This document shows, piece after piece, positions 41,101-64,000 of a DNA stretch of 64,000 nucleotides. Position 1 is the stretch's first letter, and each line of letters begins with the position of its first letter. The position numbers and the translations under genes were made by a program. Under the pieces are notes generated by a model. The model worked only from the letters and a program-made list of their open reading frames with translations, was not told the origin of the DNA and did no database searches. The stretch spans positions 130,754 through 194,753 of the forward strand of contig CAYTYR010000001.1 of NCBI GenBank assembly GCA_964441745.1, given 5' to 3'. Source of the DNA: an uncultured Clostridia bacterium (GTDB taxonomy: Bacteria > CAYTYR01 > UBA6262).

Positions 41101-41304
41101 ATGTCTTGGCCATATATTATCTACAGCCTGCTACATCCAAAAGAAAAGCCTGTATGGGTCAAAATCCGCATCTTACACGAAACCAACAAAGCTATCTTAG
41201 TCTACTGTGGCAGAAAACACTGGATCCCAAAGTCAAGGATCTACGGAATAAGGCTAAGGGATAGTATCTTTGAGATCTGCATTAAAGAAAGTACCATTGG
41301 CTAA
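41101..41304 (+). CDS. Small basic hypothetical protein (67 aa)
   Basis: AAAGGAG SD 7 nt upstream of the ATG. K/R/W-rich. Confidence 0.4.
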   Translation: MSWPYIIYSLLHPKEKPVWVKIRILHETNKAILVYCGRKHWIPKSRIYGIRLRDSIFEICIKESTIG

Positions 41305-41321
41305 TGCTTAATGATTTACAA

Positions 41322-42689
41322 TCATGCGGGGTTCTCTGTATTTTTTGCTTCCAGAGCTAATCTTTTCATCTGCTCAGCCATGTACAGCGGCAGGGTCAAA
41401 ACCTTATCATACCAGGAAAGTTTATCCTGTGAAAAACGAATACCCAGCGCTGAATTCTTTTCTGCCATAAACAGTTTTAGCGACCTCAGCGTGCCGGTCT
41501 TGCCGGCCTTGACTTCCACCGGCAGGATCAAAGCATCCACTGCCGTCACATAATCAACTTCGGCGGAACTGCTTTTTTTATCACGCGCCCAGAAAAAAAG
41601 ACCGGGCTCTAGATAACTGTCGGCATAGGCCAGTAATTCCTGTCCTATAAGTTGTTCCGCCACTGCACCGGCATTAATCTGAATAAAATCAGTCGTTAAG
41701 GCAAGCTCTGACTGCAAACCACAAACATTCTGCATGAGGCCCACATCAAGAAAATTTAATTTGAATTTCGTTTCATTGGTTTGCGCTCCCAAAGGAAGCC
41801 CTGACGCGGCAGTAGCATATACCGGACAAATAATCCCCGCTAATTTCAAGAGATTGAGAGCTTGTTTAATATCTCTTGATTTGCTATCAGGATCAATATT
41901 CGCGTATTTAATGCGACTACCGACCAGTTTTGGAGCTTCAGAAAATACCTTTTGCAGGTATTTATGTTCGGATAATTTCGCATATTTACCAAAATCCCCG
42001 CGATATGTTTGCAATAGAGAACTTTGGATGCGCTGACAATTAACATAATTCTTACTCTCCAGGTAATCTTTGACTACCGCCGGCATACCACCCACTATAA
42101 GATATCTTCGCAATAGCTCCAATAGCTTTTGATGTACCGTATCATCTATTGCGCTATTTAGTTTTATTTCCCGCAGATGACACCGCAGCTGCTCGTTCCC
42201 TGAGGCAGTTAGAAATTCGCCAAAAGACAAAGGCCCGAGATATATATATTGAATCCTTCCTACCGGCATTCTAAAATTGGAGCTGTCAAGAGCAAATTCC
42301 ATCAGTGAGCCGGCTCCGATCACCGCTATTCGGTTACACTTCTCCTTGAAATACCGCAGGGCCATTATTGCGTTGGGACATTCCTGTATCTCATCAAGAA
42401 AAAGCAATGTATTCTCTGCTTCTATCGTCACCCCCATGAGCAGTTGTAATTTATTAATGATCTCAAGAGGATCAAACGTATCAAAACACTGCTTGAGCTC
42501 AGGCCTGAATTCAAAGTTGACGACAACCACATTTTTAAAAGCTTTTTTCCCAAAATCTTCAATAAGGTAGCTTTTACCTACCTGCCGCGCGCCTCGCAGT
42601 AGCAAGGGTAGTCGCTCTTGGTATTCTTTCCATTTAAACAATTCTTGTTCCAAATCTCTTTTCATGGCAATCCCTCTTATAATGGTCAA
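41322..42689 (-). CDS. AAA-family ATPase (AAA_14 + DUF4143 architecture)
   Basis: LLRGARQVGKSYL Walker A, LFLDEIQ Walker B, and the C-terminal DUF4143-like region. Confidence 0.7.
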   Translation of the reverse strand: MTIIRGIAMKRDLEQELFKWKEYQERLPLLLRGARQVGKSYLIEDFGKKAFKNVVVVNFEFRPELKQCFDTFDPLEIINKLQLLMGVTIEAENTLLFLDEIQECPNAIMALRYFKEKCNRIAVIGAGSLMEFALDSSNFRMPVGRIQYIYLGPLSFGEFLTASGNEQLRCHLREIKLNSAIDDTVHQKLLELLRRYLIVGGMPAVVKDYLESKNYVNCQRIQSSLLQTYRGDFGKYAKLSEHKYLQKVFSEAPKLVGSRIKYANIDPDSKSRDIKQALNLLKLAGIICPVYATAASGLPLGAQTNETKFKLNFLDVGLMQNVCGLQSELALTTDFIQINAGAVAEQLIGQELLAYADSYLEPGLFFWARDKKSSSAEVDYVTAVDALILPVEVKAGKTGTLRSLKLFMAEKNSALGIRFSQDKLSWYDKVLTLPLYMAEQMKRLALEAKNTENPA

Positions 42690-42778
42690 TATACAAGGGT
42701 ATTATATACTAATAATGGCTAAAATACAAGGCATAAATTGATTTTATGTTAAAGAAAGAACTCTTGGCTAATGCCTAA

Positions 42779-43885
42779 TTATACCTTATCCGTCTGCGAT
42801 TCTAATATTAAATCTTCATGCCGTTTTACAAAATCTTTTACAAGGTTTAAATGTCCTACTTTAAGCGCCAAAATACCTTTTATTCTTGATAGTCTTTCTG
42901 TTGGCTTAAGAGTATTTTCTTTGTCATCAAGTAACGGTTTCAAATCTGCCAATAGATGCGGCATTATTTTCTTAGCTGATTTCTCAAACCGTATTTTAAA
43001 TTCATCTAAATACTCTGGGATGCCTACTGTCAACAACTGCTCTATCCCTTTTAAGCTCTGTGGCATTGTGTTATTTAACAATGAATTTACTTTGATATAC
43101 GACATCTCTTCTATGAAATGTGAATTTTTCTCTATCTTTGTGAGCGCTGTAGATTTAATATCTTCTACCCTTTGCATGGTAAAAGGGCCATAGGTTGTCC
43201 TTGCTAAGATACCCAATGCCTTAAACAAGGGGAAGCAAGACCCATGTATTTTAGATGAGATTAATACTGGGACACACTGTTCCTTATTTGCTTTTTGAAA
43301 TATATCCCAAATCTGCCAAGAGTCAGGGAACATCCATTCATTCGTATTATGAACTCTAATAAGGATATTACCGGTTTGATCCTCTGTTTTTATTATAAAC
43401 TCAAGGTAGTTTTTGTCCTTATTTAGAAGAAAGTCAATAACCGAATAGATTGATTCCTTAAATATTGATTCAAGCTTTTGTTTCAGAAGCATCATTGTTT
43501 TTTGCGAGTGTATTTGCTGATTAATAGATTCAATTAGGTTATCTTTTATTTTAAATAAATCGGCATGATGAATACCAATATTTGAATAGAAATAATGTTC
43601 TTTTAATGTAATCTCACTTGCTGCAAGCAAATCTTGCCCTTTTTTTGAATCCATGAAAAGAGTAACACTCAACGGATCAAAACGAAGATTTCCTGGCCCA
43701 ACCTCACATAGCCGGTATAGAATACCATCATTATTTAATATATATTCTTCGTTTATAAGGGTTACAAGGCGAACTGATAGATAAACACAAATCTCCTTTG
43801 GATATAGCCTATAAACACTAGCGCTTTTAACTTTTTCCATGACTTCTTTTAGGGCTTTTTTTGTTATTATCTCCTTGTACTGCAT
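42779..43885 (-). CDS. Hypothetical protein (368 aa), no recognisable domain
   Basis: AT-rich ORF with GGAGAG SD. Partner of the downstream DUF4062 protein gene. Confidence 0.4.
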   Translation of the reverse strand: MQYKEIITKKALKEVMEKVKSASVYRLYPKEICVYLSVRLVTLINEEYILNNDGILYRLCEVGPGNLRFDPLSVTLFMDSKKGQDLLAASEITLKEHYFYSNIGIHHADLFKIKDNLIESINQQIHSQKTMMLLKQKLESIFKESIYSVIDFLLNKDKNYLEFIIKTEDQTGNILIRVHNTNEWMFPDSWQIWDIFQKANKEQCVPVLISSKIHGSCFPLFKALGILARTTYGPFTMQRVEDIKSTALTKIEKNSHFIEEMSYIKVNSLLNNTMPQSLKGIEQLLTVGIPEYLDEFKIRFEKSAKKIMPHLLADLKPLLDDKENTLKPTERLSRIKGILALKVGHLNLVKDFVKRHEDLILESQTDKV

Positions 43886-44037: not shown

Positions 44038-45513
44038 TCATTTCGCTTTAAATTTCAAGGCTCGTCCTGATCCTTGCGACACAACAAATCCGCTTTCAGA
44101 TAACACCTTCATATCGCGTACAAATGTTTGGTTACTTACTTTAAAGTGTATCCTATATGTTTTATTTGAAAAAGCCATCTTCTCATTAACCATCAATCTT
44201 AATGTCTCTATCTGCCGTTCATTTAAACCTAACTTTCTAAGATCGGTCTGGCGCTCTTCCGGGATACTCGGCACTAAATCCAGAATCTTGTCTCCGGGAC
44301 CAAAAAAGCGGGTTACAAAGAACTCACCTTCTTCTTCAAACACAGGGACAGACAGCCCATGGGCTTTCATTAGCTTTTTCATTTTGCTGATTCCGGTGCC
44401 AAAGCGCTCCATATCCATGGTTTCATGGAAAATATGACAAATCGCTTCATTGCGCGTAGCATGATGCCCTTCAAGCTTCTTGATATTAAGGCCTGGTAAT
44501 AAACCGCCAGGATTACTAACTTCCACTCGATCATCGAAAATTGAAACCATAATTGGAGCTCCACTTTTTGTGTAATCGCGATGTGCTATGGCATTTATGA
44601 TGGATTCACGCACAGCTTCGTATGGATATTCAGGTATATCGACCCGTTTGAACTCGACGATCTTATTGGCTAATCTAGTATTGCGGATAAAAAAAGATTT
44701 CACTTCATCAAGCATCTTATAAATCGGACCTTTGATTTCCTGTGAGTCAATAAACTCCGAACGAGTCGTTCCTTTATAGCGAGCTATACGTATTTCATGA
44801 TGGGAAATATGTTCAGAAGGAGCTTTTCCAAAGAAAAGAAGAGCGGTATTAGTGGGATGCAAATCCCCATCCTCCTTTCTTATAACCTTAAGGGTGTCAA
44901 TAAGAAATTTCCTTATTGTTGTCTTTGGAATGGCAACTTTCAATTTAACCGCACGATTTTGTAGAAAATCTCTTACTGCCTGCTCATCGATAGACTCATA
45001 TCCAAGATCTCGATGTATTGCTTTATCAAAGGGGCCTTTTGCGGATTCTATTTTATCTTCAAGAAAAGAATTAAGGCTGTCAAGAACTTGTGTTTTTAAT
45101 TCATCAATATTTAGAAAACGCTTATAAATAAAGTTCGTTCTGATATTTTTAACAAAGTTCTGTGTCTCCTGGTCCCGCTTGGAATCATCTGAAGAATCAC
45201 CTTTGATAAATGCAATTATCTCCCTGTCTGAGTGTGTTTTTATAAAATGTTGAAATTCACTTTCCGTAGCAGAGAGATTATCCTTCCCTTTATACCCATA
45301 ATTCTTACCAATTATGCACACGTAAATATTGCTATCAGCGACGTGTTTAAGATAGATTACCGCCGGTGACTTGCCTTTAGCAGGCAGATCTTCAAATAGA
45401 AAAACATCAAAAAACCTTTTAAGCGTGGCATTTCTTTCTACTACTTCTTTTATGGCAAAGCGTTCAGCTTTTAGTTCTTTCTGATTTGCGCTTACGAATA
45501 TTTTATATTTCAT
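44038..45513 (-). CDS. DUF4062 - AlbA_2/Schlafen-like divergent-AAA - HATPase_c_4 fusion protein (COG2865-type, putative DNA-binding/defence-associated)
   Basis: N-terminal MKYKIFVSANQKELKAERFAIKEVV matches DUF4062. The central KVAIPKTTIRKFL…GDLHPTNTALLFFG matches the AlbA_2 domain. The C-terminal IINAIAHRDY…GAPIMVSIFDDRVEVSNPGGL matches RecG-C/HATPase_c_4. Confidence 0.6.
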   Translation of the reverse strand: MKYKIFVSANQKELKAERFAIKEVVERNATLKRFFDVFLFEDLPAKGKSPAVIYLKHVADSNIYVCIIGKNYGYKGKDNLSATESEFQHFIKTHSDREIIAFIKGDSSDDSKRDQETQNFVKNIRTNFIYKRFLNIDELKTQVLDSLNSFLEDKIESAKGPFDKAIHRDLGYESIDEQAVRDFLQNRAVKLKVAIPKTTIRKFLIDTLKVIRKEDGDLHPTNTALLFFGKAPSEHISHHEIRIARYKGTTRSEFIDSQEIKGPIYKMLDEVKSFFIRNTRLANKIVEFKRVDIPEYPYEAVRESIINAIAHRDYTKSGAPIMVSIFDDRVEVSNPGGLLPGLNIKKLEGHHATRNEAICHIFHETMDMERFGTGISKMKKLMKAHGLSVPVFEEEGEFFVTRFFGPGDKILDLVPSIPEERQTDLRKLGLNERQIETLRLMVNEKMAFSNKTYRIHFKVSNQTFVRDMKVLSESGFVVSQGSGRALKFKAK

Positions 45514-45559: not shown

Positions 45560-46990
45560 TTTCACGATTCAGTGCCTGATAATATGTTAGGCGCTTCCCC
45601 CCGATTCTTGGTAAAATGATTGTTACTGGCAATCAAACCAAGAAGAGGAGGAAACACCATGAATTATGTTGGTGTAGATCTGCACAAAGAGCAGTCCTGG
45701 TTCGTAGTTTTAGACAGTAAAGGTAAAAGATTGATCAGTAAGAGTATAGCAAATTCTCCGGAAGGGTTAAAGCAGTATTTCTCGAAACTACCGAACCCCT
45801 TTACCCTGGCTGTAGAATCAACATATAACTGGTATTTCTTTGTTGATCTCGCGGAACAATACGCGGAAAAAGTATATCTGGCTAATTCCTATGAGCTGAA
45901 AGCCTTTGCCAAGAGACATAAGAAGACAGATAAGATAGATGCTCATCTGATCGCCGAGGTCCTACGTAAAGGATATTTGCCTACCGTGACTATTCCAGAT
46001 CAAGAAACCAGACGGGTCAAAGAGCTGTTGCGCTACCGGATGAATCTGGTCAGGGAACGCTCTAAGAATATTTATCAGGTAAGTGGTAATTTTACTACCT
46101 ACAAACGATTAAAGGCTCTCCCCCTGGAGCTTTTTCCTCCCAATTACCGGGAGATCATCCAGGGTTACAGCGAGAGAATCGAGTTTCTCACCCGCTGGCT
46201 CTTTCAGATAGAAAAGTATATCAAAGAAAATGTTAAGGATGACGAAGATATCATAAACCTGATCACTATTCCGGGTATCGACTATTTCAGTGCGGCTTTG
46301 ATTAAGACCGAGATCATTGATATCAGCCGGTTTGCTTCTTTTAACCGCTTATGCGCGTATGCCGGGTTAGCTCCCAGAGTCAGTCAAAGCGCCAATAAGG
46401 AAGTACATGGACCTTTAAATATCAATCGCCGGAAGAACCTGCAATGGATCCTAATTGAAGTGGTATATCATTTCATCAAGGCTCTTCCTGAGAAAAGCCA
46501 GCGCTATGAAAGCATAGTAAGCAGAAAAGGCGCTAATACCGCTAAAGTAGCCATGGCCCGAGAAATGCTCAAGATCATTTATCACGTTTTAAAAGAAAAA
46601 AGGCCTTTTTATCAGCATGTTGTCCGGTCTGAGGTGTCTCCTGCGCTCTATGGGGTCTGAGGTGCCGCAAGGCAGCTCTCGAAGGTCTGATTAGCGAGGA
46701 GCCACCACCCGATATTATCATGCAGTCCCGATGCACAGGGAGCTGCCGAGAGGTGACTGAAGTCCGGCATATGGCGGAGCTTCTCAAGGTAACTGATGGG
46801 TGTGGCGCCGACTGGATGATCTTTATAGCAATCATTGAATCTTAAGATTGTGGGGAATCTTTCAAGGGATCTCTATCTCTTCCCTTGACAATCACCTAAA
46901 TAGGTGAACCCGTTACTTCTAGACCCCGTTACTTCCTTACGAAATTTGATTACTAGGGAAGAAGGCTCCCGTTAGCTCTAGCATCAGCTT
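45560..46990 (+). mobile_element. IS110-family insertion sequence (boundaries approximate; this family lacks terminal IRs)
   Basis: Transposase gene plus a 330-bp GC-richer 3' flank, contrasting with AT-rich surroundings. Confidence 0.55.
45659..46660 (+). CDS. IS110-family transposase (DEDD N-domain + C-terminal HhH)
   Basis: MNYVGVDLHKEQSWFVVLD (DEDD motif 1), …TIPGIDYFSAALIKTEIIDISRF (C-terminal domain). GAGGAGG SD upstream. Confidence 0.8.
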   Translation: MNYVGVDLHKEQSWFVVLDSKGKRLISKSIANSPEGLKQYFSKLPNPFTLAVESTYNWYFFVDLAEQYAEKVYLANSYELKAFAKRHKKTDKIDAHLIAEVLRKGYLPTVTIPDQETRRVKELLRYRMNLVRERSKNIYQVSGNFTTYKRLKALPLELFPPNYREIIQGYSERIEFLTRWLFQIEKYIKENVKDDEDIINLITIPGIDYFSAALIKTEIIDISRFASFNRLCAYAGLAPRVSQSANKEVHGPLNINRRKNLQWILIEVVYHFIKALPEKSQRYESIVSRKGANTAKVAMAREMLKIIYHVLKEKRPFYQHVVRSEVSPALYGV

Positions 46991-46991
46991 C

Positions 46992-47135
46992 TTATAGTGG
47001 TATTAGTACCTCTTCACACCAAGAAATAACTTCTTCTGCATTATCTACTGAAGTAATATGCCAAAATATTCGTTGTAAATCTTTCCCTTTGAGAATATCA
47101 ATCGGGATGTCAGAATATTTTCCAAATTGCTTTAT
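46992..47135 (-). pseudogene. 3' fragment of a gene interrupted by IS21 insertion (…EFTIKQFGKYSDIPIDILKGKDLQRIFWHITSVDNAEEVISWCEEVLIPL)
   Basis: The reading frame runs out of the IS21 left terminal repeat. The N-terminal portion lies beyond the IS at 49553-50205. Confidence 0.4.
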
Positions 47136-47303
47136 TGTAAATTCCGCCGCATGACGACCGCAGATTCCGCTGCATGGCGACCGGGTTTTCCGCTGATGAC
47201 GACCAGCCGTTGGCCAGGATAAAACCAAAGCCGAATAAATTCAAGCATAATCTTCAAAAAACTGCCATAATGTGCCTACTTTATTCATTGGAGGCGCAAA
47301 AAG

Positions 47304-48740
47304 ATGGCGCAAAAGAGGTTATGCGTGAGACAAATCAAAGAAGTGTTAAGATTGAAGTATGAGCTGGGTAAAACCCACCAGGAAATCAAAAATATATGCG
47401 GTATAGGCAAAACCACGGTACAGGAATATCTTTCCCGGGCGCAAGCGGACGGGCTCAGCTGGCCCTTACCGCCTGATCTGAATGATGTCCAGTTGGAACA
47501 GCGATTATTCAAGAAAAAGAGCAATCCAGTAATAGGAAAGGCGCCGATTCCCTACCAGTATATAGCCGAAGAATTGCGCCGGCCCAATGTAACCTTGTGG
47601 TTGTTATGGGAAGAATACAAAAAAGAAAATCCGGAGAACGGCTATCAGTATAGTTTTTTCAATGAACAGGTTGATAAATACCTTGGCCGCGTAAACTACA
47701 GTATGCGACAGCAGCATCAGGCTGGTGAAAAAGTATTTGTTGATTTCGGCAATATTGAAGAACCGGGAATACTCGATCACTCCACCGGAGAGCTTTTAAA
47801 GATTCAGTTCTTCGTGGCAGTCTGGGGCGCTTCGCAATACGCCTATGCCGAAGCCTCACTGAGTCAGGATACCGCGGCCTGGATCAAGCTTAACATCAAC
47901 GCCTTGAGATTTTTCGGTTGCGCGCCGCAAGCGCTGGTGCCGGACAATCTTAAAGCCGCCGTAACTCAAACCTGCAAATATGAACCGATAATTAATAACA
48001 CTTTCATCGAGTTTGCCAATCACTATGATCTGGCGATAATGCCGGCCAGGCCAGCCAAACCAAAAGACAAGGCTTTAGCGGAAAACGGCGTTAAACTGGT
48101 CAAGCGCTGGATACTGGCCCGCCTGAGAAATAGAATTTTCGCTAATTTGGAACAATTAAACGCCGCCATCCGTGAACTACTGGAATATTACAATACACGG
48201 ATTATGAAAAAATACGGCAAATCGCGTAAAGAACTGTTTGCTTCTCTGGATAAACCAGTGGCGGCTTCTCTACCGGAAACAGATTATGAATATGCCCAGT
48301 GGAAAAAAGCCAGGGTGAATATTAATTATCATGTGAATTTTGAGAAACACGATTATTCAGTTCCTTACACGTTAATCCACAAAGAAGTGGAGATCAAAGC
48401 CACTACCGGAATAATCGAGGTGTATTTCCAGGGCGAAAGAGTCTGCGCTCATGCCAGAAGTGGCCGGGAAAACGGCTATTCCACGATCAAAGAGCACTTG
48501 CCGCCATCACACCAGAAATACCTGGAGTGGACCCCGCACCGATTAGTTTCCTGGGCCGAAAAATACGGCCCGGCAGTCAAAGCTCTCGTGGAAGCTATTA
48601 TGGCTTCGACCAGATTCCCGGAACAAGCGTATAAACGCTGCCTGGGTATTATCCGGCTGGGCAACCGCTATTCACCCCAACGTCTCAATACCGCTTGCCA
48701 ACGCGCTCTTAAATACCAGCAAACGGAGGAAAAACCATGA
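47304..48740 (+). CDS. istA: IS21-family transposase IstA
   Basis: N-terminal HTH (RQIKEVLRLKYELGKTHQEI), DDE core (…VDFG…, …D…, …E…), 478 aa. Overlaps istB by 4 bp. Confidence 0.85.
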   Translation: MAQKRLCVRQIKEVLRLKYELGKTHQEIKNICGIGKTTVQEYLSRAQADGLSWPLPPDLNDVQLEQRLFKKKSNPVIGKAPIPYQYIAEELRRPNVTLWLLWEEYKKENPENGYQYSFFNEQVDKYLGRVNYSMRQQHQAGEKVFVDFGNIEEPGILDHSTGELLKIQFFVAVWGASQYAYAEASLSQDTAAWIKLNINALRFFGCAPQALVPDNLKAAVTQTCKYEPIINNTFIEFANHYDLAIMPARPAKPKDKALAENGVKLVKRWILARLRNRIFANLEQLNAAIRELLEYYNTRIMKKYGKSRKELFASLDKPVAASLPETDYEYAQWKKARVNINYHVNFEKHDYSVPYTLIHKEVEIKATTGIIEVYFQGERVCAHARSGRENGYSTIKEHLPPSHQKYLEWTPHRLVSWAEKYGPAVKALVEAIMASTRFPEQAYKRCLGIIRLGNRYSPQRLNTACQRALKYQQTEEKP

Positions 48741-49477: not shown

Positions 49478-49552
49478 ACCGCCTTTTTAGAGTATAAAGC
49501 TATCAAAGATTATGCTTGTCTTACCGGTTGGTCGTCATCAGCGGATTTTACA

Positions 49553-50205: not shown

Positions 50206-50433
50206 TGTTTATCCTCCAGTATTTGTTCTAACGCCGCGTTGAGTTTAAGTGTTTTCTTTCTCAACTTCAAGCACTTGGGTAACGTGGTCGTAAATGAGTG
50301 CTGACCCGTAGATATCTAAAAAGCAAGTAAAACCCTATAAAACCCTTATCAAATAAGGAACTACCACTTTACTTGCTTTGAATGTTCCAAGTAACAAATA
50401 TTCATTTCTAAATTATGACTTTATATTTTTCTT

Positions 50434-54168: not shown

Positions 54169-54177
54169 AATCTCCTG

Positions 54178-55587: not shown

Positions 55588-56373
55588 TTAAATATATTGC
55601 GACATTTCTCTCTTTGGAAGTCTATTCTTCAATTGCCTCAATTCTTCCAGCTCTTTCCCATATTCCTGGGCTATAACCCCAGCTATTTCTTCTATCCCTA
55701 TATCTCCGACTATTTCCCGCTGATCTGCATAATCGCCGCCTGCTGCCTGCTCTTTCAGTTCCTTCAGCTTTTCTTTAATGAACTTTGTCCGGCCTAATAT
55801 AAACCCGCCATATACTTCCTTGAATGGATCTGCTTTATGATTTATTCCTTCTTCGTTAAATTCACGATAACTCATTGTGTCTAGGAATATCACCTGGCTG
55901 ATCTGCGCCTTGTCTATATATCCGTCTCCTTCTTTTGTGAGATACCCCTTATAGCTAGACCACTTGTATTCTTCTGGCTTTTTAGCCATCCCGGCCCTGA
56001 CCGGATTCAAGTGAATATACCTGGTCAGTTCCAATAGGTAGTTGTCCTTATCCACCAGGATAGACTTGTATCTGCCCTGAAAAACATGTCCAGATTTATG
56101 ACATTTGAGATTGTAATAGGTGGTATAGGAGGAATTCACATAGTGCATGATCTTGGAGAGATTGGGCTGGGTGGTTTCCAGCAGCAGATGGTAATGGTTA
56201 TTCATCAAAACATACGCATACAGATAGAAGTTATACTTGGCTTTGGCATTAAGCAGATATTTAAGAAATTGCTGATAATCATAATCACTGACGAAGATCT
56301 TCTTCCGGTCATCGCCACGGCTGGTGATATGATAGCAGCAATTTTCGCCTTGTAATCGATACGGTCTGGCCAT
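55588..56373 (-). pseudogene. IS200-like Y1 transposase/DnaA-HTH fusion, copy 2 (frameshifted: HTH now in another frame at about 55500-55585)
   Basis: The first 128 codons plus 70 bp of 5' flank are identical to copy 1 (52129-52575 vs 55995-56441). The DnaA-like HTH (MKRVTALSNIEIGKYFNISSAAVSK) is out of frame downstream. Confidence 0.6.
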
Positions 56374-56511
56374 AGGTCATATTTTACTATCTTGCTTCTT
56401 CTTTGTCAATCTATTTCCCATTTCAAGGACTGACCCCGTTGATTTTATTCTGGGGATTTAATTCTCATTTATTCAAGATTATTAAAAGCTAATAGAAATT
56501 ATATCTTGAAT

Positions 56512-56711: not shown

Positions 56712-57203
56712 TTAAATCTTCTCCACAAATCGTTTCAAAATTGCTTGCGTAATATAAGGATTCTTTTCCGCTATTTTATTTGCAATTGTTATAGCCTCTC
56801 TGCTTACCAGATATCCTTTTTCAACGAGTAATTTCATTAAATTTAAACCCCAAATAGTTTCTATTCCGATTTTATTACACTCAGTAATAAGCTTTTTATC
56901 ACTGCTAATACACGGACAGTTCTTATCACGAGATAGTATAAAACATAATCTATCTTGAAAAGATAGAGGGCCACTTCTCTTAGAAGCTTCTTGTAATTGA
57001 TTCAAGCTCGGCTCAACAGTCACCAGGCCTAAGCTTTCTGCTTGACCCGGTAATATCTGCTGAACCTCTTGAAGAGTAGCTTTTGACACGTAGATTTGTA
57101 AGCAGTGCTTTGAAAATAACTTCAGGATCTTGGGTTCCGTTAGTATATAGTCAATCAATACACTGGCATCACAAATGACTCCCTTTACTGAAGAATCTGC
57201 CAT
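56712..57203 (-). CDS. PIN-domain protein (DUF4411-like)
   Basis: GVICDASVLIDY N-terminal acidic motif of PIN nucleases. Overlaps the upstream XRE-ImmA gene by 19 nt. Confidence 0.55.
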   Translation of the reverse strand: MADSSVKGVICDASVLIDYILTEPKILKLFSKHCLQIYVSKATLQEVQQILPGQAESLGLVTVEPSLNQLQEASKRSGPLSFQDRLCFILSRDKNCPCISSDKKLITECNKIGIETIWGLNLMKLLVEKGYLVSREAITIANKIAEKNPYITQAILKRFVEKI

Positions 57204-58297
57204 GATTTAGTTTTTTCCCTTAAATCAAGAAGTGAAATACCTAATATTTCTGATGCTCTGCTTTGAGATATTTTTTCACTGGTCAATGCGTCTCTGATAA
57301 GACCTTCAAGGTAATCTTCTGAAAAATCTATTTCTTCTAATGGACAAGGTTCTTTATGCCCTTTTAAATCTTTATTAAATCTTCTTTTGTATTCCACGTT
57401 GAAGGATTTCCAAATATCTTTATTAGTAACTCCTTCTTCAATAAGTCTAAATAAAACAGTCCCATAACTTACCTTAAAAATACGTTTCACATAAAATATC
57501 CGTTCTATGGTTGGTAATCCGCGGCCTTCTTCCCAGATACGCTTAAAAATATTTTGAGGCATCAGGAAATACGAAGCAAATATATCCGCCTCTTTTTCTT
57601 CCCGGTCGTTTTCGGCTAATTTGTTAATATCAAAAGAATATTCATGTAAAAGTATATGGGCTAGCTCATGTGCTAAAGTAAATATTTTACGTTCTACGCT
57701 AATATCTTTTGAGTCATTAACTCCTATAGCTGGGCCATAATCATCTTCACTTAAAGAAAATCCAAAACTCCCAGCCATCTTAAAATCGATTGCCGAAATT
57801 ATAATCCCTGCTGATTCTAGAACTGAAGGTAAATCAGGGATGGGGTCTTCTTCACATATCGCTAATTTTGAGCGTACAGACATTGATAGGCTTTTAAGTT
57901 GTTCATTAGAAAAAGATTTCTTAGCTTCTTTCAGCCCAGCTAAACTAAACGGCTTCCTGCAATTGAGAATTTCCTCGAGATTTCTTAAATCCTTAAGTTT
58001 GAAGGCAAATTTATGTACAACGTCTTCTCTTATAAGTATTCCCTTTTTTGAAAGGTTCTGAGATCGGAATCTAAGAGATTTCAATTCAGGGGCAGGTTCA
58101 ATAATAGATTGAATATTTACTTTAAGAGCAGAAGCAATATTATCAAGAGTGGATACCCGTGGCTCTGCTTTTGCCTGCTCAATAGAAATATAAGCAGCTC
58201 TGCTTAACTTTGCTTTTTCAGCAGCTTCTTCTTGAGTAAAGCCGCTTAACAGCCTATATCGTCTTATATTTTTTGCTACTATGTCCTTGATAGACAT
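57185..58297 (-). CDS. XRE-family HTH fused to ImmA/IrrE-family zinc metallopeptidase (COG2856-type)
   Basis: HTH (IVAKNIRRYRLLSGFTQEEAAEKAKLSRAAYISIEQAK) and the HEXXH motif LAHELAHILLH. Start placed at the Met preceded by GGGGGAGGGG (58297). Confidence 0.7.
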   Translation of the reverse strand: MSIKDIVAKNIRRYRLLSGFTQEEAAEKAKLSRAAYISIEQAKAEPRVSTLDNIASALKVNIQSIIEPAPELKSLRFRSQNLSKKGILIREDVVHKFAFKLKDLRNLEEILNCRKPFSLAGLKEAKKSFSNEQLKSLSMSVRSKLAICEEDPIPDLPSVLESAGIIISAIDFKMAGSFGFSLSEDDYGPAIGVNDSKDISVERKIFTLAHELAHILLHEYSFDINKLAENDREEKEADIFASYFLMPQNIFKRIWEEGRGLPTIERIFYVKRIFKVSYGTVLFRLIEEGVTNKDIWKSFNVEYKRRFNKDLKGHKEPCPLEEIDFSEDYLEGLIRDALTSEKISQSRASEILGISLLDLREKTKSWQILQ

Positions 58298-58320
58298 TGC
58301 CCCTCCCCCTTGTGGTAGCA

Positions 58321-58340
58321 TAGTATAGTAAACTATACTA
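58321..58340. promoter_or_regulatory. 8-4-8 palindrome TAGTATAG-TAAA-CTATACTA overlapping a TTGACA-N17-CTATAT promoter for the XRE-ImmA/PIN operon
   Basis: Seen in sequence on the minus-strand sense, 25-45 nt upstream of the ATG. Confidence 0.4.
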
Positions 58341-58378
58341 ATTAATATATAGCATAATATATGTATAGTTGTCAAGTC

Positions 58379-59818
58379 TTATTTAGCCTGTAATATTGCC
58401 TCATGAAGCTTAACCATCGCTAAGGTATCGCGTTTGCAATAAGCGAGTAAATTCCTGCGAATCTTCTCTTTCTCTGTAGGTTTTTCAATTAATCCCATTG
58501 CCATAAAAGCAAAAAGTGCTGCTGCGCTACCGCCTTCTTTAATTTCTAGATCACTATAATCAAGTTCAGCTACCATTACTGGTAAGACCTTCTTAATCGA
58601 GTAGCTACCGCAAAAACCAGGGTGATAATAATGGCTCCTTAGAAGTGCGCAGAGGTCAAAAAGCCGTGCGATAATATTATTCAGAGGATCACTTAAATCG
58701 GGAAAGATTTTTGCGAGACCGCTAATAATACCTTTTTCATATGAAGAATAGACTATAATACTACCTTTACCCTTTAATATAAATACTAGGTTTTCTGCAA
58801 TAGTTCGCCTGCAGTCATGTGAAGGGTCAGCAAGATATTCGAAATGGGCTATTTCTGTACCCGGCGCAGAACATTGGTGGATAGAATATTGAGTTACTAT
58901 TTTCTCATAAGGCCCAATTTCATCATAAATAGGTAAAGCCGTTGCGCAGGTTTCAAAGTCAAGATACCAAGCTGGCCAAATGATTGAGTTTATTTCTTGG
59001 TTTAATTGTGGTGAGACGAAAGACTTTTTGGCACATACTGACTGCCATACTCGTTTTTGTGTATCAGACAGCTTAATACCAGGTGGGATATGATCAATTT
59101 GATAAACACTATGTTCGGATAGCTCCTTAAAGAGCTTTTCTGATATCCTCGGAATATCAAAGATGTGATTACTAATTCCTTGTCCGGAACAAGCTTCGAA
59201 TACAGGACAGTTTTTGCATTCTAAGATCAATTGCGGCTTGGGCGAGATATCTAAATTCAATAACTCACTTAATCGATCGGCTTCTGCATTAAATATATCA
59301 GCCTTTTCTTTTGCTTCACTTGTTATATCCTCTTCAATAAATAAATCTTTTACAGGCATACCTTTTCGATATTCTCCTGAAACCAGCAATAATGATATAG
59401 AGTTAACTTTAATTCCTGCACGAGTCATAACTGCGAATGTATATGCAGCATCTTCAACGTATTCTGGTTTTACATCCTTGCCTGATTTTACTTCTCTAAG
59501 ATGCCAACCTTTACTGTCTTTGTATATAACATCAGCCCTGGCACCCAATCCATCTGCTGAAAACGCAGCTTCAAAAAGAATATGGTTAGTGTGTAGTGCC
59601 TTACCTGTTGCAGCAACTGCCTCCTGCATTGCACCAGGGATTAATACCCCTGAATCATAAAGTAACCGAGCCTTTTCGGTGATCATATTCCCTTCTAAAC
59701 GCCTAAGCTTTATATCTTCGGATACAATTTCAGGCAGTTGATTATTATGTGTTAGCCACCCCAAGCGTGGACAAATAAATGCGTTAAGAAAAGTGGTTTT
59801 TGCTATTAATTTTGCCAT
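58379..59818 (-). CDS. DUF2779-family protein (N-terminal Cas4/RecB-like PD-(D/E)XK nuclease + C-terminal RNase-H-like 3'-5' exonuclease)
   Basis: EVKSGK nuclease motif, Cys cluster ECKNCPVFEAC, and YLDFETCATALP (DEDD-like). Confidence 0.6.
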   Translation of the reverse strand: MAKLIAKTTFLNAFICPRLGWLTHNNQLPEIVSEDIKLRRLEGNMITEKARLLYDSGVLIPGAMQEAVAATGKALHTNHILFEAAFSADGLGARADVIYKDSKGWHLREVKSGKDVKPEYVEDAAYTFAVMTRAGIKVNSISLLLVSGEYRKGMPVKDLFIEEDITSEAKEKADIFNAEADRLSELLNLDISPKPQLILECKNCPVFEACSGQGISNHIFDIPRISEKLFKELSEHSVYQIDHIPPGIKLSDTQKRVWQSVCAKKSFVSPQLNQEINSIIWPAWYLDFETCATALPIYDEIGPYEKIVTQYSIHQCSAPGTEIAHFEYLADPSHDCRRTIAENLVFILKGKGSIIVYSSYEKGIISGLAKIFPDLSDPLNNIIARLFDLCALLRSHYYHPGFCGSYSIKKVLPVMVAELDYSDLEIKEGGSAAALFAFMAMGLIEKPTEKEKIRRNLLAYCKRDTLAMVKLHEAILQAK

Positions 59819-59834
59819 AACTACTCCAATATTC

Positions 59835-60323
59835 TCAGCTTATCTCAAGCCATTTATTGTTTACATAATCTCCTATTCCACTTGGATGAAACGAATTGTA
59901 TAATTTTTCAAATTCCATCTTTGCATTATCATAAGAGTCATTTGGAATGATTTTTGCCCTTTTTGCCAGGTAAAGTAGCCCTATTGTTGGCCCCCTAGAC
60001 ATCCCCTCATCACAATGTACTAACACATTACGACTTTTAATCCAATTATCAATAAAATCTAGAACACTCATAAATGTCTTTGGACCGCTCCAATCGTATA
60101 AATATGCTGCACCATCTACCCAATTTAATGAGAGATGATTATCTTTTTCATAAATTATGTAATTAGGATGGGTTTTATTAGGTTTATTATATTTACGATT
60201 CCAATTCATATACCTGTAATGTATCGTTTGGGTAGCATGGACAAAAGCCCAATCGTTATCGTTAGTATTATTTATATCTTGAATAGACCCAATATAAAGG
60301 TTTGTATTAGGAATCTTTATCAT
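59835..60323 (-). CDS. Cys-based dual-specificity/protein-tyrosine phosphatase
   Basis: VLVHCDEGMSRGPT is the HC(X)5R P-loop signature. Confidence 0.7.
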   Translation of the reverse strand: MIKIPNTNLYIGSIQDINNTNDNDWAFVHATQTIHYRYMNWNRKYNKPNKTHPNYIIYEKDNHLSLNWVDGAAYLYDWSGPKTFMSVLDFIDNWIKSRNVLVHCDEGMSRGPTIGLLYLAKRAKIIPNDSYDNAKMEFEKLYNSFHPSGIGDYVNNKWLEIS

Positions 60324-60423: not shown

Positions 60424-61338
60424 CTATTTTGGGAAGCAAAGTTCCCGGTAATTGCAGAAACCACATATTTTCATATTACTGGTCGTAGCAAATTCCTTTT
60501 TCTCTTTCGGGATATTCTGCTCGATGCTTTTAAGCGCTGCGTACATCTCTCCGGTTTCCGTTTTGACCGTATCGCTGAATGCCTTAATATCCGACACACT
60601 AACCTTTATTGAAATCTCCGAATACTTCGGTAGGAGATAGGCTGTCCCAGGGAATATCCTTGCCGGCTCCTTGCTAAAATTGTTTGCTGCCCAGGTAGAG
60701 TAGCCGATAAGCTGTTTTGAATGCTTTTTCTCATCAGGTTTGCCTGTTTTCCAATCAAGTATGAATATATCGCCGTCAACAGGGAAAAGGAAATCCACTT
60801 TGCAGTAGGCTTTCATACCGTCTATCCTGGTTTCGCCATATCCCGGAGGCTCTATTATCCAGCCTGTTTTGTTTGTTATAGCTTTTTCAATTATCCAACG
60901 AAACCTGTCACTTCCGATGAAGTTATTAAGTCCCATCTTCACGTTTTCATAGATCCAGTCAGTATCAATGTTCTTAAGCTGTTTGTAATAGACCTCGGCA
61001 AAAGTTTTGGCACCGCAGTATTCATCCGTTTTCTTTCGCGCGTAATCTAAGAATCTTTCACTGTCGACCGGCTCCTCGCTTTTCAAAAGTCTTTCCAAGA
61101 ATGCCTTTATAGTATCGTGGATGATATTGCCTGTCTCAAGGGCCGTCGAAGTCATAGATTTTAAAGCGTTAATCTTTGAGCGCGGGCACTCAGTATCGTA
61201 TTTTCCGTAATAGTCGAAATAATACTGCCTCCGGCACAGTTTGAACTTGTCGTAACGCGACAATGACCAGCCCAGTATATCCGAGTAATCGTAGCGTTTG
61301 ATGTTATTTAGTTTCTCGTTCATTTTTTTTGCTCCCAT
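60424..61338 (-). CDS. PD-(D/E)XK nuclease with Cas4-like Cys4 (Fe-S) arrangement
   Basis: RIDGMKAYCKVDFLF…ILDWKTGK (D…D/E.K), one N-terminal Cys and a C-terminal CGFCNYRELC. Confidence 0.65.
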   Translation of the reverse strand: MGAKKMNEKLNNIKRYDYSDILGWSLSRYDKFKLCRRQYYFDYYGKYDTECPRSKINALKSMTSTALETGNIIHDTIKAFLERLLKSEEPVDSERFLDYARKKTDEYCGAKTFAEVYYKQLKNIDTDWIYENVKMGLNNFIGSDRFRWIIEKAITNKTGWIIEPPGYGETRIDGMKAYCKVDFLFPVDGDIFILDWKTGKPDEKKHSKQLIGYSTWAANNFSKEPARIFPGTAYLLPKYSEISIKVSVSDIKAFSDTVKTETGEMYAALKSIEQNIPKEKKEFATTSNMKICGFCNYRELCFPK

Positions 61339-61488
61339 TTTCTCTTAATATCCCTATTACAAATACTCCCTTTTTATAAGTTCCTTCTTATAAATATACA
61401 GTATCTTTAGCAGTTATGACAAGCAACTTGCTTTATTACTTTCTTCAGCTAATTTTCAGACAAATTCCCGTTTCAGTGCCTGACCCCG

Positions 61489-61650
61489 TTGTTTTCCTGA
61501 TGAATATTTTCTTCCGGTCATCGCCACGGCTGGTGATATGATAGCAGCAATTTTCGCCTTGTAATCGATACGGTCTGGCCATAGGTCATATTTTACTATC
61601 TTGCTTCTTCTTTGTCAATCTATTTCCCATTTCAAGGACTGACCCCGTTG
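61489..61650 (-). mobile_element. Miniature remnant of the Y1-transposase element (first ~36 codons + 5' flank only), bounded by CTGACCCCGTTG on both sides
   Basis: 61507-61650 is identical to 52437-52575 and 56301-56441. Confidence 0.6.
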
Positions 61651-61690
61651 TCTCTGTTTCATGACCCCGTTGTCTCTGACTGACCCCGTT
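61636..61690. repeat. Three tandem GACCCCGTTGTCTCT units (REP-like)
   Basis: CTGACCCCGTTGTCTCTG-TTTCAT-GACCCCGTTGTCTCTGACT-GACCCCGTTGTCTCTG seen in sequence. A related pair GAACCCGTTACTTCT / GACCCCGTTACTTCC lies at 46908-46938. Confidence 0.6.
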
Positions 61691-62510
61691 GTCTCTGAAG
61701 TAAAGTGAGACATTGGGTTGCTCTTACCGAAGCTTCGTAAAAGGACCCTTCCTTTTCCAAATAATCTTTGAATTCCTTAAGCTTCGAGATTAATACTTTC
61801 TTATTATTTCTGGCTTTAATAACAGCTTCAGAAGCATTGTCATTTTGGGTTAATAGTAACACGCCTTTGACTGGCAAATCAATACTAGCAAAATGGTAAT
61901 GATTGACTAACTTGATAGCTCCAAGAAGGGCCAGCTCTTCCCTTGCTTCAGGAGAAGCTCTAATTCCAATTTTCTCTTGAAAAAGCATTGCAACTCGATC
62001 CTGTAGGAATACCAATCGCTCATAAGGCTCATGACAGTCCCTATGCTGTAGAGTCCCATCCCCCTCTTGAAATGGAAAAGAGTCACTCATTGCCTCAAGC
62101 ACTAAGTTAAGTGCAAAAATACAATCTTGATCTAAGAAAAGTTGATGATCGGAATATACTTTCTTAAGTTTATCATATTCCCCGGAAGGTACCGGTTCAT
62201 TCATCCATCCTTCATCCGGATCGTATCCTACCTCAGACCACCTTCTCTTAGTTTCAGCTATATGGCTAAGAATTGAGGCAAAAGCTAACCGTTGATGGTC
62301 AAAAAATAGCGATGTTCGAAGCTGATGAAGTTGGCGCTCATATAAAGCCGCTTGCATATTAGCATTCAATTCTGCTTTATATGCTTCTAGCCTTTGTGCA
62401 TACTCATGCTTTATACTCTCACGTATGCGTTCGGAAATCCAATGGCGAAAGAGCCAGACAATTATAGCGCCAGAAAGACCGCCTGATACTATATTGAGCA
62501 TTAATTCCAT
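61691..62510 (-). CDS. Membrane-anchored hypothetical protein (N-terminal TM helix + roughly 250-aa cytoplasmic domain)
   Basis: MELMLNIVSGGLSGAIIVWLF TM segment. The start at 62510 avoids a low-complexity extension, and the 3' end is uncertain because the ORF runs into the repeat array. Confidence 0.4.
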
Positions 62511-62646
62511 AGATATTGCCACCTCCAATCATTAACTATATATTAATTAGGTTTTTAGGAACACTCATAAAATTAACCCTTCTAATCTTGTTTAGTCTTT
62601 GCTGTTTTTTTGCTTCAATATCCCTTGGCTTCCTATGTTTTATTAT

Positions 62647-63648
62647 TTAAAAAGGAATTTCTTCTTCCATTGAGAGCTTATCAATTTTTTCGAGAAATTC
62701 TTTGACTGTATATGCATCTTTAACCCATTCGTTTTTATTGGAAGCCTCTCTTATACGTTGAATCTCTTCCTTCGTAACCCCTCCTTCTAATGATTCAATC
62801 CTTTTCATTATTTTACATGCTATAGAATGTCCATATGAATCTTCTAGCGCAATAAACAATGCTTCACGCATTTTAACTTTTGTTGATGGACTTTTTTGTA
62901 ATATTTTCACTACTTCTATTGCCATATTTTCTGACGACTCTATTGGAACAGACAATGATTGAGTTTCACTAATAAACCCATACGGGTCAAGACCATCCCT
63001 CACATGTATGATTAAAACTCCTTTTGCTACTGCAAAGCCAACTTCATGGTCTGTCCACTTACTTTCTCGAAAATGCGAAGTAAGTAATGCTAAAAATACA
63101 TCCATAGTACTAAGTGCAAGTTTGATCTCGCGTTGCCAAGGCAAAGTTGGTTCAATATCTTCGTGGGCTACAAAAGCCTCTATTTTGTACTTAGAAAGTT
63201 GCTTTTTTAGGTTCACTGCTTCTGTTTTATTTTCGTGTTGATGGCCTATAAACACTTTTAATAAATTTGCATCTCCCCATATTCTAGTTAGATTTTCATC
63301 TGTAATCAATCTTGAAAGTTCTGCAGATGGTTGATCTATAGGTAAAGGACGAATAACTACATTATTTAATACTTGGCTTCCCATACCCCTAAGCACTACT
63401 TGGAGCTTTGACTCAATTTCCTTTTCATATTTACTTAGATTTGATTCGATAGAGGCGAAAAGCTCAATCGATATATCTAAATAAAGAGTATAGTAATATG
63501 TGCCCCCATTCCAATTATCATATTCAGTTTCTTCAATGCTCGCCCTAGCACCCTCAATAATCTTAACAAGCATGGTCTTTTGTTGATGTCGATATAGGCT
63601 TGCCAATGTTGCTATAATACTATCTACATTAAAGGGTATCTCATTCAT
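62647..63648 (-). CDS. TIR-domain protein (C-terminal TIR, N-terminal domain unknown)
   Basis: The C-terminal half KVFIGHQHENKTEAVNLKKQLSKYKIEAFVAHEDIEPTLPWQREIKLALSTMDVFLALLTSHFRESKWTDHEVGFAVAKGVLIIHV follows the TIR pattern (FIShs..d…A..L…L…g…F…I..G..W…I…l…V.v.T..s..S.Wc..E.g.a). Confidence 0.55.
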   Translation of the reverse strand: MNEIPFNVDSIIATLASLYRHQQKTMLVKIIEGARASIEETEYDNWNGGTYYYTLYLDISIELFASIESNLSKYEKEIESKLQVVLRGMGSQVLNNVVIRPLPIDQPSAELSRLITDENLTRIWGDANLLKVFIGHQHENKTEAVNLKKQLSKYKIEAFVAHEDIEPTLPWQREIKLALSTMDVFLALLTSHFRESKWTDHEVGFAVAKGVLIIHVRDGLDPYGFISETQSLSVPIESSENMAIEVVKILQKSPSTKVKMREALFIALEDSYGHSIACKIMKRIESLEGGVTKEEIQRIREASNKNEWVKDAYTVKEFLEKIDKLSMEEEIPF

Positions 63649-63794
63649 TTGTTATTAGGTCCATTTCTTTATTTTCAGGGATATTAAAATAATTATCTAT
63701 ATAACATGCGGTCTATCCAATAATTTCTGTTTAGTTATATCTTTTTTAATTAATTATTATCATGTTCTCGGGATTCCCTCTGCGGATTCAAAAA

Positions 63795-64000
63795 TATTCA
63801 CCTGGGTCAGGATCATAATGATCTTCGTTCCAGGCATCAAGTTCATCAGAACGATCATAAAATGACTCTATCCCTGCCAACTTAAGTTCTTCAATATCAT
63901 TTAATCTTAAACCACATTCTCCACACATAAACCCATCGGCAAAGAAATCGAGTGATATATCAGGCGATTCATCATGGCCTTCAACATGAACATCAGTATA
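63795..64000 (-). CDS. 3' end of an ORF running off the window (…FMCGECGLRLNDIEELKLAGIESFYDRSDELDAWNEDHYDPDPGEYF)
   Basis: Open frame to the window edge; stop at 63795-63797. Confidence 0.3.

Follow-up and report, generated by a model that had tools for sequence, protein, structure and literature searches.

We analysed a window of 64,000 nucleotides (nt) from an uncultured Clostridia bacterium (positions 130,754 to 194,753 of contig CAYTYR010000001.1, assembly GCA_964441745.1); all positions below are those of the window unless a relative is named. The tRNA genes of the window were called by ARAGORN and Rfam, and its genes were assigned by Pfam, PADLOC and NCBIfam. Across the whole window, Rfam found nothing beyond three tRNAs (Asn, Ala and Ser). 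The subject of this work is the region that begins to the right of tRNA-Ser(GCU) and runs past the end of the window. An earlier reading made from the letters alone (called the sequence-only reading here) had taken this region for a defence and mobile-element island of about 23 kb, integrated next to a tRNA-Ala/tRNA-Ser pair.

Genes on the two sides of tRNA-Ser(GCU)

The DNA to the left of tRNA-Ser is housekeeping, as the sequence-only reading had it (dnaX-ybaB-recR and POR, together with panD, radical-SAM genes and others), though one insertion sequence (IS) lies within it at 33681-34946. The three tRNA genes and the features with which the island begins are as follows (aa, amino acids).

30289-30362, minus strand: tRNA-Asn (ARAGORN and Rfam).
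39868-39941, minus strand: tRNA-Ala(CGC), in the core flank and outside the insert; in the same place in the relatives L164, L167, L169 and L170.
40592-40684, minus strand: tRNA-Ser(GCU), in the core flank with its 5' end towards the island; syntenic in all four relatives.
40890-40924, minus strand: degenerate 3' part of a tRNA-Ser(UGA) (T-arm and acceptor region), a putative attachment-site (att) remnant.
40900-41097, plus strand: 65-aa helix-turn-helix (HTH) protein, with weak matches to HTH_38 and to resolvase-type HTH domains.
41101-41304, plus strand: p67, a 67-aa protein without a family match, the second gene of the terminal module.
41322-42689, minus strand: ATPase with AAA_14 and DUF4143 (PADLOC PDC-S01, 4e-148).
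42749-42779, plus strand: 31-nt remnant of the p67 3' end (27 of 31 positions identical to 41282-41312).
42779-43885, minus strand: 368-aa protein of a rare family, without a domain match.
44038-45513, minus strand: DUF4062 (NIR, a TIR-like NADase) fused to HATPase_c_4 (Pfam PF13271, 3e-17).
50319-50410: 92-nt element with a hairpin of 12-bp stem, just downstream of the RhuM gene.

Nine of the 21 open reading frames (ORFs) to the right of tRNA-Ser have PADLOC matches, several of them with E-values below 1e-80. Ten left-side proteins, run as a control, gave only weak generic TPR and PDC-M14B matches. Judged by these family matches, the right side is a defence island, in which several anti-phage systems, known or candidate, are gathered, more than in the DNA around it.

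The empty site and the exchanged genes

Relatives for comparison were drawn from a 5.8-billion-protein search with DnaX, after which their contigs were compared (L164, L167, L169 and L170/L171). The DnaX identities of the four are 85, 77, 72 and 58%; L164 is the closest, L169 stands at 72% and L170/L171 at 58%. Among GTDB representative genomes and JGI metagenome contigs, the best DnaX matches were 54% or less and were unusable for the empty-site comparison. Just outside the clade, DnaX identity is 46% or less. The order POR, 496-aa gene, recR, ybaB, dnaX, 204-aa gene, tRNA-Ala, SpoIIAA-like gene(s), tRNA-Ser(GCU) is kept in all four relatives. Between the two tRNAs, the window (40128-40520) and L164 have one SpoIIAA-like gene; a tandem pair of paralogues takes its place in L167 (7802-8525), L169 (7977-8721) and L170 (8498-9240).

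On the other side of tRNA-Ser(GCU), the relatives differ. In L169 and L170 a second tRNA gene, tRNA-Ser(UGA), lies 44 bp to 1 kb away, with serS, archease, gyrA and gyrB outside it and the SpoIIAA-like gene(s), tRNA-Ala and dnaX on the opposite side. The distance between the two tRNA-Ser genes is 44 bp in L170/L171. In L169 the slot holds an acetyltransferase gene alone, and beyond tRNA-Ser(UGA) follow a 101-aa gene, serS, archease, gyrA and gyrB. L169 and L170 carry the empty site, which the sequence-only reading had proposed to seek in closely related genomes. The far flank of the slot, read over L170 1-8145 and L169 1-6295, comprises recF-like, dciA, gyrB, gyrA, archease and serS genes. A neighbourhood of the recF/gyrB/gyrA type is often found near the chromosomal origin.

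At the edge by tRNA-Ser(GCU), the window, L164 and L167 have in common the gene for the 65-aa HTH protein and the 67-aa gene (40900-41304 in the window). Neither gene is found in L169 or L170. Since the pair is missing from the genomes with an empty site, it is part of the insert, and the island starts at approximately 40,890. The proposed extent of about 23 kb from 41,101 has to be revised accordingly: synteny breaks at approximately 40,890, and the island, a patchwork, runs beyond 65,179, that is, for more than 24.5 kb. The contig that carries the sequence past the window end (L163) reaches neither a tRNA nor the serS-side flank. A 101-aa ORF just outside the window was considered as the far flank and rejected, as it is unrelated to the 101-aa gene beside serS in the relatives.

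The same slot holds differing defence-type cargo in the window, L164 and L167. In L164 it contains three unknown genes, a protein with SLFN_AlbA_2 and HATPase_c_4, a PDC-S05-like protein and an AbiV-type HEPN protein. In L167 it contains a DUF4062+HATPase_c_4 gene with a 364-aa neighbour, two unknown genes, SoFic and a UvrD-like helicase.

The genes that are shared within the slot are far more alike than the core genes of the same genomes. Between the window and L167, identity at fourfold-degenerate sites is 92% for the HTH gene, 89% for p67, 84% for the DUF4062 gene and 58% for the 368-aa gene, as against 36-59% for ten core genes. Between the window and L164 it is 80% (HTH) and 82% (p67), and ten core genes give 46-67%. 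At the protein level, the HTH proteins of L164 and L167 are 91-94% identical to that of the window. The DUF4062 gene is 94% identical in nucleotides to its L167 counterpart over 1395 nt, with flanking core at 74-82%, and the identity breakpoints are sharp, its neighbour falling to 74%. Such closeness at synonymous sites indicates that these genes were exchanged long after the species split. Other island genes also have close relatives elsewhere: AbiEii has 12 relatives of at least 90% identity in other samples, and DnaX and RecR have none (they are singletons). For the DUF4062+HATPase_c_4 protein the homologues number more than 1,400; the best 120 are 64-88% identical, and among them are sequences labelled Omnitrophota, Elusimicrobiota, Actinobacteria and a Thermoplasmata archaeon. 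Taken together, the sequence comparisons mark the region as horizontally acquired, with strong evidence from the discordance at synonymous sites rather than from the weak shift in GC content.

The interior of the island bears the marks of repeated remodelling. Relative to L167, the DUF4143 gene is a 1.4-kb insertion bracketed by the p67 3'-end repeat (41282-41312 and 42749-42779). The L164 island holds a second, 5'-truncated copy of p67 (L164 5017-5190), and beside this internal copy stands the same 92-nt hairpin element as in the window (91-94% identical). From their sequences, the p67 copies and the hairpin element suggest stacked element ends. The point of truncation in L164 (approximately 5192) bears the 20-mer AACGGGGTCAGGCACTGAAA, a motif that also ends a miniature Y1-transposase element in the window. 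GC content at third codon positions (GC3) varies in blocks within the island, from 0.24 to 0.52. It is low in the 368-aa and DUF4062 genes, RhuM, the four-gene cluster described below and the TIR gene, and core-like in the IS elements, AbiE, the Y1 genes, the DUF4143 gene and the PD-(D/E)XK gene. These blocks, together with a modest overall shift, indicate a mosaic and no single foreign block. The content is an accreted patchwork and not one 23-kb unit.

Origin of the island

Both tRNA-Ser(GCU) and tRNA-Ala are on the minus strand, and the island lies on their 5' side; these two tRNAs are thus conserved bystanders. tRNA-Ser(GCU) abuts the insert with its 5' end, and no tRNA follows the island up to approximately 65,179. 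In the relatives, the other side of the slot is bounded by tRNA-Ser(UGA), whose 3' end faces the slot. From this arrangement, the probable integration target is tRNA-Ser(UGA), which likely lies beyond the window. The sequence-only reading had expected a direct repeat of the tRNA-Ser 3' end at the far border. The candidate repeat is instead at the near border, at 40890-40924, and appears to derive from tRNA-Ser(UGA). Read on the tRNA strand, it is CACCGGCGGTTCGAATTGGTGGCAACCGCGTCCGC, and it occurs once in the window. Over the first 17 nt, 15 positions agree with the T-arm of tRNA-Ser(UGA) in L170 (p about 0.002). Behind the remnant in L167 come TTTTCATCCTC and a small terminator-like hairpin, which match the native downstream flank of the L169 tRNA-Ser(UGA) with an alignment score of 32, where the null reached 20 at most; next in order is the acetyltransferase gene. 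A remnant joined to the native flank of tRNA-Ser(UGA) in this way has the look of a displaced half of a bacterial attachment site (attB) after integration at the 3' end. When copies of tRNA-Ser(GCU), tRNA-Ala and tRNA-Asn were sought elsewhere in the window, only chance matches of up to 14 nt were found.

The two bystander tRNAs share a further feature. A similar motif, CATAGGGG(G)AAA...TTTCCCC...TGAC, lies upstream of tRNA-Ala (39942-40000) and of tRNA-Ser(GCU) (40685-40811), and positions 9068-9177 of L164, upstream of its tRNA-Ala, align to window 40702-40811 at 72%. Possibly it is a promoter or leader element common to these tRNA genes.

We read the stretch from approximately 40,890 to beyond 65,179 as an acquired, mosaic anti-phage island in the slot between tRNA-Ser(UGA) and tRNA-Ser(GCU), with tRNA-Ser(UGA) outside the window by serS, gyrA and gyrB; we give this reading a probability of roughly 0.6. 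Site-specific integration at tRNA-Ser(UGA) is its most likely origin, at about even odds, with a plain recombination hot spot as the main rival. An integrative element would have entered the 3' end of tRNA-Ser(UGA) and left a degenerate copy of the tRNA 3' end at its own distal end (40890-40924), beside the terminal HTH-p67 module. The slot was then repeatedly refilled and remodelled, by tandem or replacement insertions of which the p67 remnants are traces, and by the IS110, IS21 and Y1 insertions seen in the window. Single genes were swapped between species by homologous exchange, as is seen for those shared with L167. The cargo would consist of independent abortive-infection and toxin modules (AbiE, RhuM, the DUF4143 ATPase and others). 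The DUF4062/NIR NADase, with the HATPase_c_4 region as sensor, would be expected to deplete NAD+ on sensing phage. The RmrA-like HTH-M78 regulator may act with the nucleases and the phosphatase, and the TIR protein with its membrane partner. Of the earlier picture of a tRNA-associated defence island, an acquired region rich in defence genes and mobile elements at a tRNA locus stands; the tRNAs named in it are bystanders, and there is no visible integrase.

A number of observations weigh against this reading. No integrase or site-specific recombinase was found among the ORFs of at least 80 aa between 40.7 and 64 kb, and both ORFs of L163 lack one too; an integrase could sit past 65,179. The tRNA-like remnant is short and degenerate, the HTH ORF has its first codons within it, and the Rfam tRNA model, run permissively over 40686-41110, gave no tRNA fragment. 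One copy of the repeat is present in the sequence up to approximately 65,179, the intact tRNA-Ser(UGA) of this genome and the far junction lying beyond. The interior joins over the repeated Y1 and IS copies have the source assembly as sole support. The functions of the cargo are predicted from family membership only. Finally, the compositional contrast between island and core is weak to modest and patchy. The right side is AT-richer, as had been claimed (GC 0.397, against 0.425 to the left; per-gene Mann-Whitney p=0.007), and the core's synonymous codon usage fits its genes slightly worse than those of the left side (p=0.016). Per-gene GC3 does not differ significantly (p=0.33), and the core at 1-6 kb and 28-31 kb is as AT-rich as the island. 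Composition alone would have missed this island; it was the synonymous-site comparison and the empty site that revealed it.

The main rival dispenses with an integrase altogether. In it the slot is a recombination hot spot, a permissive spacer between tRNA-Ser genes into which DNA arrives by homologous recombination through conserved flanks (the tRNA genes and HTH-p67) and by IS and Y1 transposition; the 35-mer is then a coincidence or part of the HTH gene. The 24.5 kb in view without an integrase, the gene-sized exchange with sharp breakpoints, the three kinds of transposable element inside the island, the Y1-end motif exactly at the L164 rearrangement junction and the failure of Rfam to recognise the remnant all agree with it. 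It fits less well with the remnant in L167, which continues into the native tRNA-Ser(UGA) flank and terminator-like hairpin as a displaced attB half would, and with the HTH-p67 end, which three genomes carry at the same edge, nearly identical at synonymous sites, and which fits a mobile element with a defined end. We hold the hot spot as the less probable alternative. An integron cassette array was also raised, as the cargo is nearly all co-oriented, and was rejected: there is no integrase, and no repeated-hairpin or attC family was found in 40.6-64 kb.

That the DNA is instead ancestral to the clade and was secondarily lost in L169 and L170 could be argued from L167, in which the DUF4062 gene and its 364-aa neighbour are placed and ordered as they are in the window, the neighbour having diverged nearly as far as core genes (58% fourfold-site identity). 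The sequence-only reading had named the same genes in the same place as a sign of ancestry, and L167 offers this pattern on the surface. It does not hold, as the shared genes are 84-92% identical at fourfold sites against 36-59% for the core: the HTH, p67 and DUF4062 genes are too similar for vertical descent. Two successive outgroups also lack the island and both keep their tRNA-Ser genes close, and L164, the closest relative, has wholly different cargo. Ancestry is largely refuted and very improbable. An assembly or binning artefact, in which the island was misjoined to a housekeeping contig at repeats, has in its favour that this is a metagenome-type assembly and that tRNA-Ala, the IS and the miniature Y1 repeat are points at which short-read Logan contigs break off. 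Nevertheless, 39906-41737 and 61625-65179 are reproduced exactly by independent Logan contigs of two runs. Contig L082, from the second run, spans tRNA-Ala, tRNA-Ser, the HTH gene and p67 into the DUF4143 gene at 100% identity, L163 confirms 61625-65179, and the same junction architecture is present in two related genomes. A misjoin is thus hardly to be expected here.

A more far-reaching view, which we consider doubtful, is that the HTH-p67-ended inserts would form an undescribed family of small integrative elements for defence in an uncultured bacterial lineage, with tRNA-Ser(UGA) as their target; they would pile up in tandem and trade cargo across species. The Y1 transposase with its DnaA-type HTH and its ACAACGGGGTCA repeats would be a cassette shuffler, and DUF4062+HATPase_c_4 would count as a single-gene NADase system of its own, apart from Swarozyc, Evangelion, Vulcan and Vesta, new and very widely transferred. 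Searches of the HTH/p67 junction sequence and the DUF4062 protein against viral contigs gave no matches, and neither did p67 against phage and plasmid collections. The locus is a clear-cut example of a hot spot for defence islands in a poorly sampled uncultured lineage, whose DnaX is 46% identical or less to anything outside a handful of metagenome bins; it offers an empty site, a candidate tRNA target and direct signs of exchange between species at the level of genes. The DUF4062+HATPase_c_4 variant and the family of HTH-p67-ended elements are its most interesting by-products.

Cargo, mobile elements and comparison with known systems

The remaining features of the island within the window are the following.

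45620-46660, plus strand: IS110-family transposase gene.
Approximately 47136-49552, plus strand: IS21 with istA and istB (genes 47304-49477) and terminal inverted repeats TGTAAATTCCGCCGCATGACGACC and GGTCGTCATCAGCGGATTTTACA.
49553-50205, minus strand: 5' part of a gene split by IS21 (3' part at approximately 46995-47135), without a family match.
50434-51519, minus strand: RhuM-family protein (PADLOC PDC-S05, 8e-146).
51562-52509, minus strand: Y1 transposase gene, copy A (315 aa), with a C-terminal DnaA-type HTH; 51562-52581 with the shared 5' leader.
52798-54942, minus strand: AbiE pair, AbiEi at 54178-54942 and AbiEii at 53245-54168, with an extra 147-aa ORF without a match.
55588-56373, minus strand: Y1 transposase gene, copy B (261 aa, shorter than copy A); 55588-56445 with the leader.
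56712-60323, minus strand: tight four-gene cluster of low GC3 (0.24-0.32), made up of the next four genes.
56712-57203, minus strand: 163-aa weakly PIN-like protein (marginal PIN_3 match).
57185-58375, minus strand: 396-aa RmrA-like protein with HTH_3 and an M78 peptidase domain.
58379-59818, minus strand: Cas4-like nuclease with DUF2779.
59835-60323, minus strand: DSPc phosphatase.
60424-61338, minus strand: PD-(D/E)XK (PDDEXK_1) nuclease, with a GC3 of 0.51, unlike the neighbouring cluster.
61471-61692, minus strand: miniature Y1 element, with three ACAACGGGGTCA repeats, 158 nt of leader and 5' coding sequence (61497-61654) and the end motif AACGGGGTCAGGCACTGAAA.
61659-62528, minus strand: 289-aa protein without similarity to TIR that has a transmembrane helix at its N terminus; the final codons of its gene enter the miniature Y1 repeats.
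62647-63648, minus strand: TIR_2 protein of 333 aa.
63788-64000, minus strand: 3' end of a 315-aa ORF without a match, which continues past the window.

Nearly all gene assignments of the sequence-only reading are borne out by this list. RhuM, AbiEi/AbiEii, the DUF4143 ATPase and the DUF4062 protein were recovered by Pfam, PADLOC and NCBIfam. The nuclease/phosphatase operon corresponds to the PIN-like, HTH+M78, Cas4+DUF2779 and DSPc genes at 56712-60323 and the PD-(D/E)XK gene at 60424-61338. The elements assigned to IS110 and IS21 were verified by their domains, IS21 also by its terminal inverted repeats, and the three Y1 copies are indeed two genes (315 and 261 aa) and a miniature with 158 nt of Y1 sequence. 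The proposed TIR pair is half right: the protein at 62647-63648 is a TIR_2 protein, and its 289-aa partner is a membrane protein without TIR similarity. Most of the modules that the sequence-only reading took to be without a named counterpart do have one: DUF4062 belongs with NIR, Swarozyc and Evangelion, DUF4143 with PDC-S01 and RhuM with PDC-S05, and the HTH-M78 protein is RmrA-like. For the four-gene cluster none was found. The DUF4143 and RhuM proteins are PADLOC candidate single-gene systems. Exact look-ups of the island DUF4143, IS110 and Y1 proteins returned no matches, nor did those of the DUF4062 protein, made both with the window ORF and with the database hit P0001.

IS110 begins where homology to L167 stops (approximately 45579). 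IS21 has IstA (rve and Mu-transposase C), the IstB ATPase and terminal inverted repeats; a target-site duplication was looked for and none was identified. The gene that it splits has an in-frame TGA at approximately 50007. The other window genes read normally under code 11, and the split gene thus looks like a pseudogene rather than a recoded gene. The first approximately 460 nt of Y1 copies A and B, leader included, are identical, the next 300 nt are 89% identical, and the remainder has diverged; the identical 5' part suggests gene conversion or a mobile 5' module. The ACAACGGGGTCA repeat occurs six times in the window against 0.14 expected, every time at a Y1 element, and the 20-mer AACGGGGTCAGGCACTGAAA at the L164 rearrangement junction is related to it. 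The Y1 genes resemble RAYT and IS200-type transposases in their Y1_Tnp domain (NCBIfam REP_Tyr_transpos, score 81.3 against a cut-off of 80) and in the short ACAACGGGGTCA repeats clustered on their 5' side. They differ in the fused C-terminal DnaA-type HTH, in having neither TnpB nor clear subterminal hairpins, and in that the copies share an identical 5' part and have diverged in their 3' parts.

Three features of the core flank are recorded here. The IS at 33681-34946 encodes an HTH_28/rve_3 transposase, has inverted repeats at approximately 33653-33669 and 34989-35005 and lies between the POR operon and the 496-aa gene. It is missing in L164 and L167, where the alignment skips from window 33621 to approximately 35055; it is thus a window-specific insertion in a core region. 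A 92-aa GIY-YIG ORF (29894-30172, minus strand) adjoins tRNA-Asn, with a GIY-YIG gene in the same place in L167 and L169. The stretch 29861-30327 is 94% identical in nucleotides to L167, against 74-83% for core DNA, and may be a second small, recently exchanged element. A palindrome at 29008-29069 (31+31 nt without a spacer, 84% complementary) lies in a low-GC intergenic stretch.

Among the cargo, the DUF4062+HATPase_c_4 protein is the one with the closest ties to recently described systems. DUF4062 has been a named TIR-like NADase effector, NIR, since 2026, in Swarozyc (10.64898/2026.05.01.722283) and Evangelion (10.64898/2026.06.25.731849), and NIR is also found in Avs2-NIR, Vulcan and Vesta (10.64898/2026.09.04.749371). 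The family profile of the window protein matches the DUF4062 structure of KpSwz (10wc, 7e-7) over residues 2-139 only, and E84 of the window protein aligns with the catalytic E97 of KpSwz (PDB 10wc). Among 39 homologues, E84 is conserved in at least 90% and E86 is invariant. The AlphaFold model is confident for residues 1-155 (predicted local distance difference test, pLDDT, approximately 85-92), with matches to TIR-type folds. As in Swarozyc, Evangelion, Avs2-NIR, Vulcan and Vesta, an N-terminal DUF4062 sits on a single polypeptide that joins an effector core to a C-terminal auxiliary (AUX) region, and the setting in a defence island and the signature of horizontal spread are also those of DUF4062/NIR systems. 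The auxiliary region of approximately 390 aa gave no match to that of a named system; it matches HATPase_c_4, of the type of DIP2311 (3lmm). The AUX regions of Evangelion and KpSwz have no recognizable conserved domains (10.64898/2026.06.25.731849), Vulcan has HEAT repeats and Vesta an alkaline-phosphatase partner (10.64898/2026.09.04.749371). Neither HATPase nor Schlafen is mentioned in the Swarozyc, Evangelion or Avs2-NIR/Vulcan/Vesta papers. By its predicted domains, the protein belongs to a known effector family, in which its architecture is new, and is a putative single-gene abortive-infection effector. It appears to represent a very widespread, highly conserved variant of this NADase family. 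The neighbouring 368-aa protein is 63% identical in amino acids to its syntenic L167 counterpart (364 aa). It was considered as an obligate partner and rejected: DUF4062 has more than 1,400 homologues and the 368-aa protein 15, of which at least four are on contigs with a DUF4062 gene, so it is an occasional neighbour and probably no component of the system.

The AbiE system, a type IV toxin-antitoxin and abortive-infection system, is complete: AbiEi (AbiEi_3_N and AbiEi_3) and the AbiEii nucleotidyltransferase are adjacent, with full-length profile matches of 2e-84 and 2e-113. It shows no notable difference from known AbiE; the extra 147-aa ORF follows. The HTH_3+Peptidase_M78 protein of the four-gene cluster matches 15 RmrA models (best 1e-28) and its gene overlaps a small downstream gene, as in toxin-antitoxin pairs; it was compared with RosmerTA (RmrT/RmrA) and other toxin modules under XRE-HTH+M78 (ImmA/IrrE-like) regulation. 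No RmrT model matches any of its neighbours in the window, and RosmerTA is not described as clustered with a Cas4+DUF2779 nuclease and a DSPc phosphatase. NCBIfam scores the protein at 87 for the spr1629 antitoxin, against a cut-off of 335. The HTH+M78/Cas4+DUF2779/DSPc cluster is without a named counterpart, and of the seven papers that a full-text search on DUF2779 gave, none deals with an anti-phage defence system in its title or abstract opening. The TIR gene was compared with Thoeris. Its matches are weak and below the family cut-offs (ThsB 2e-8; ThcB4-type 48 bits against 220), no ThsA-like gene is adjacent, and its partners are the membrane protein and ORFs without a match. Sequence searches of solved structures with the 479-aa, 163-aa and TIR proteins gave no matches.

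As a whole, the locus resembles the known tRNA-associated islands in several respects: a fixed slot by tRNA genes that is empty in some relatives and holds differing defence genes in others, a patchy composition, IS elements, recent horizontal exchange and a putative partial copy of a tRNA 3' end at one end. It differs from them in that no integrase is visible and that the tRNAs in the window lie on the side where they could not serve as target, the candidate for that role being outside the window. A further difference is the position of the slot, between two tRNA-Ser genes near recF-gyrB-gyrA-serS. In kind, it is an ordinary bacterial defence island.

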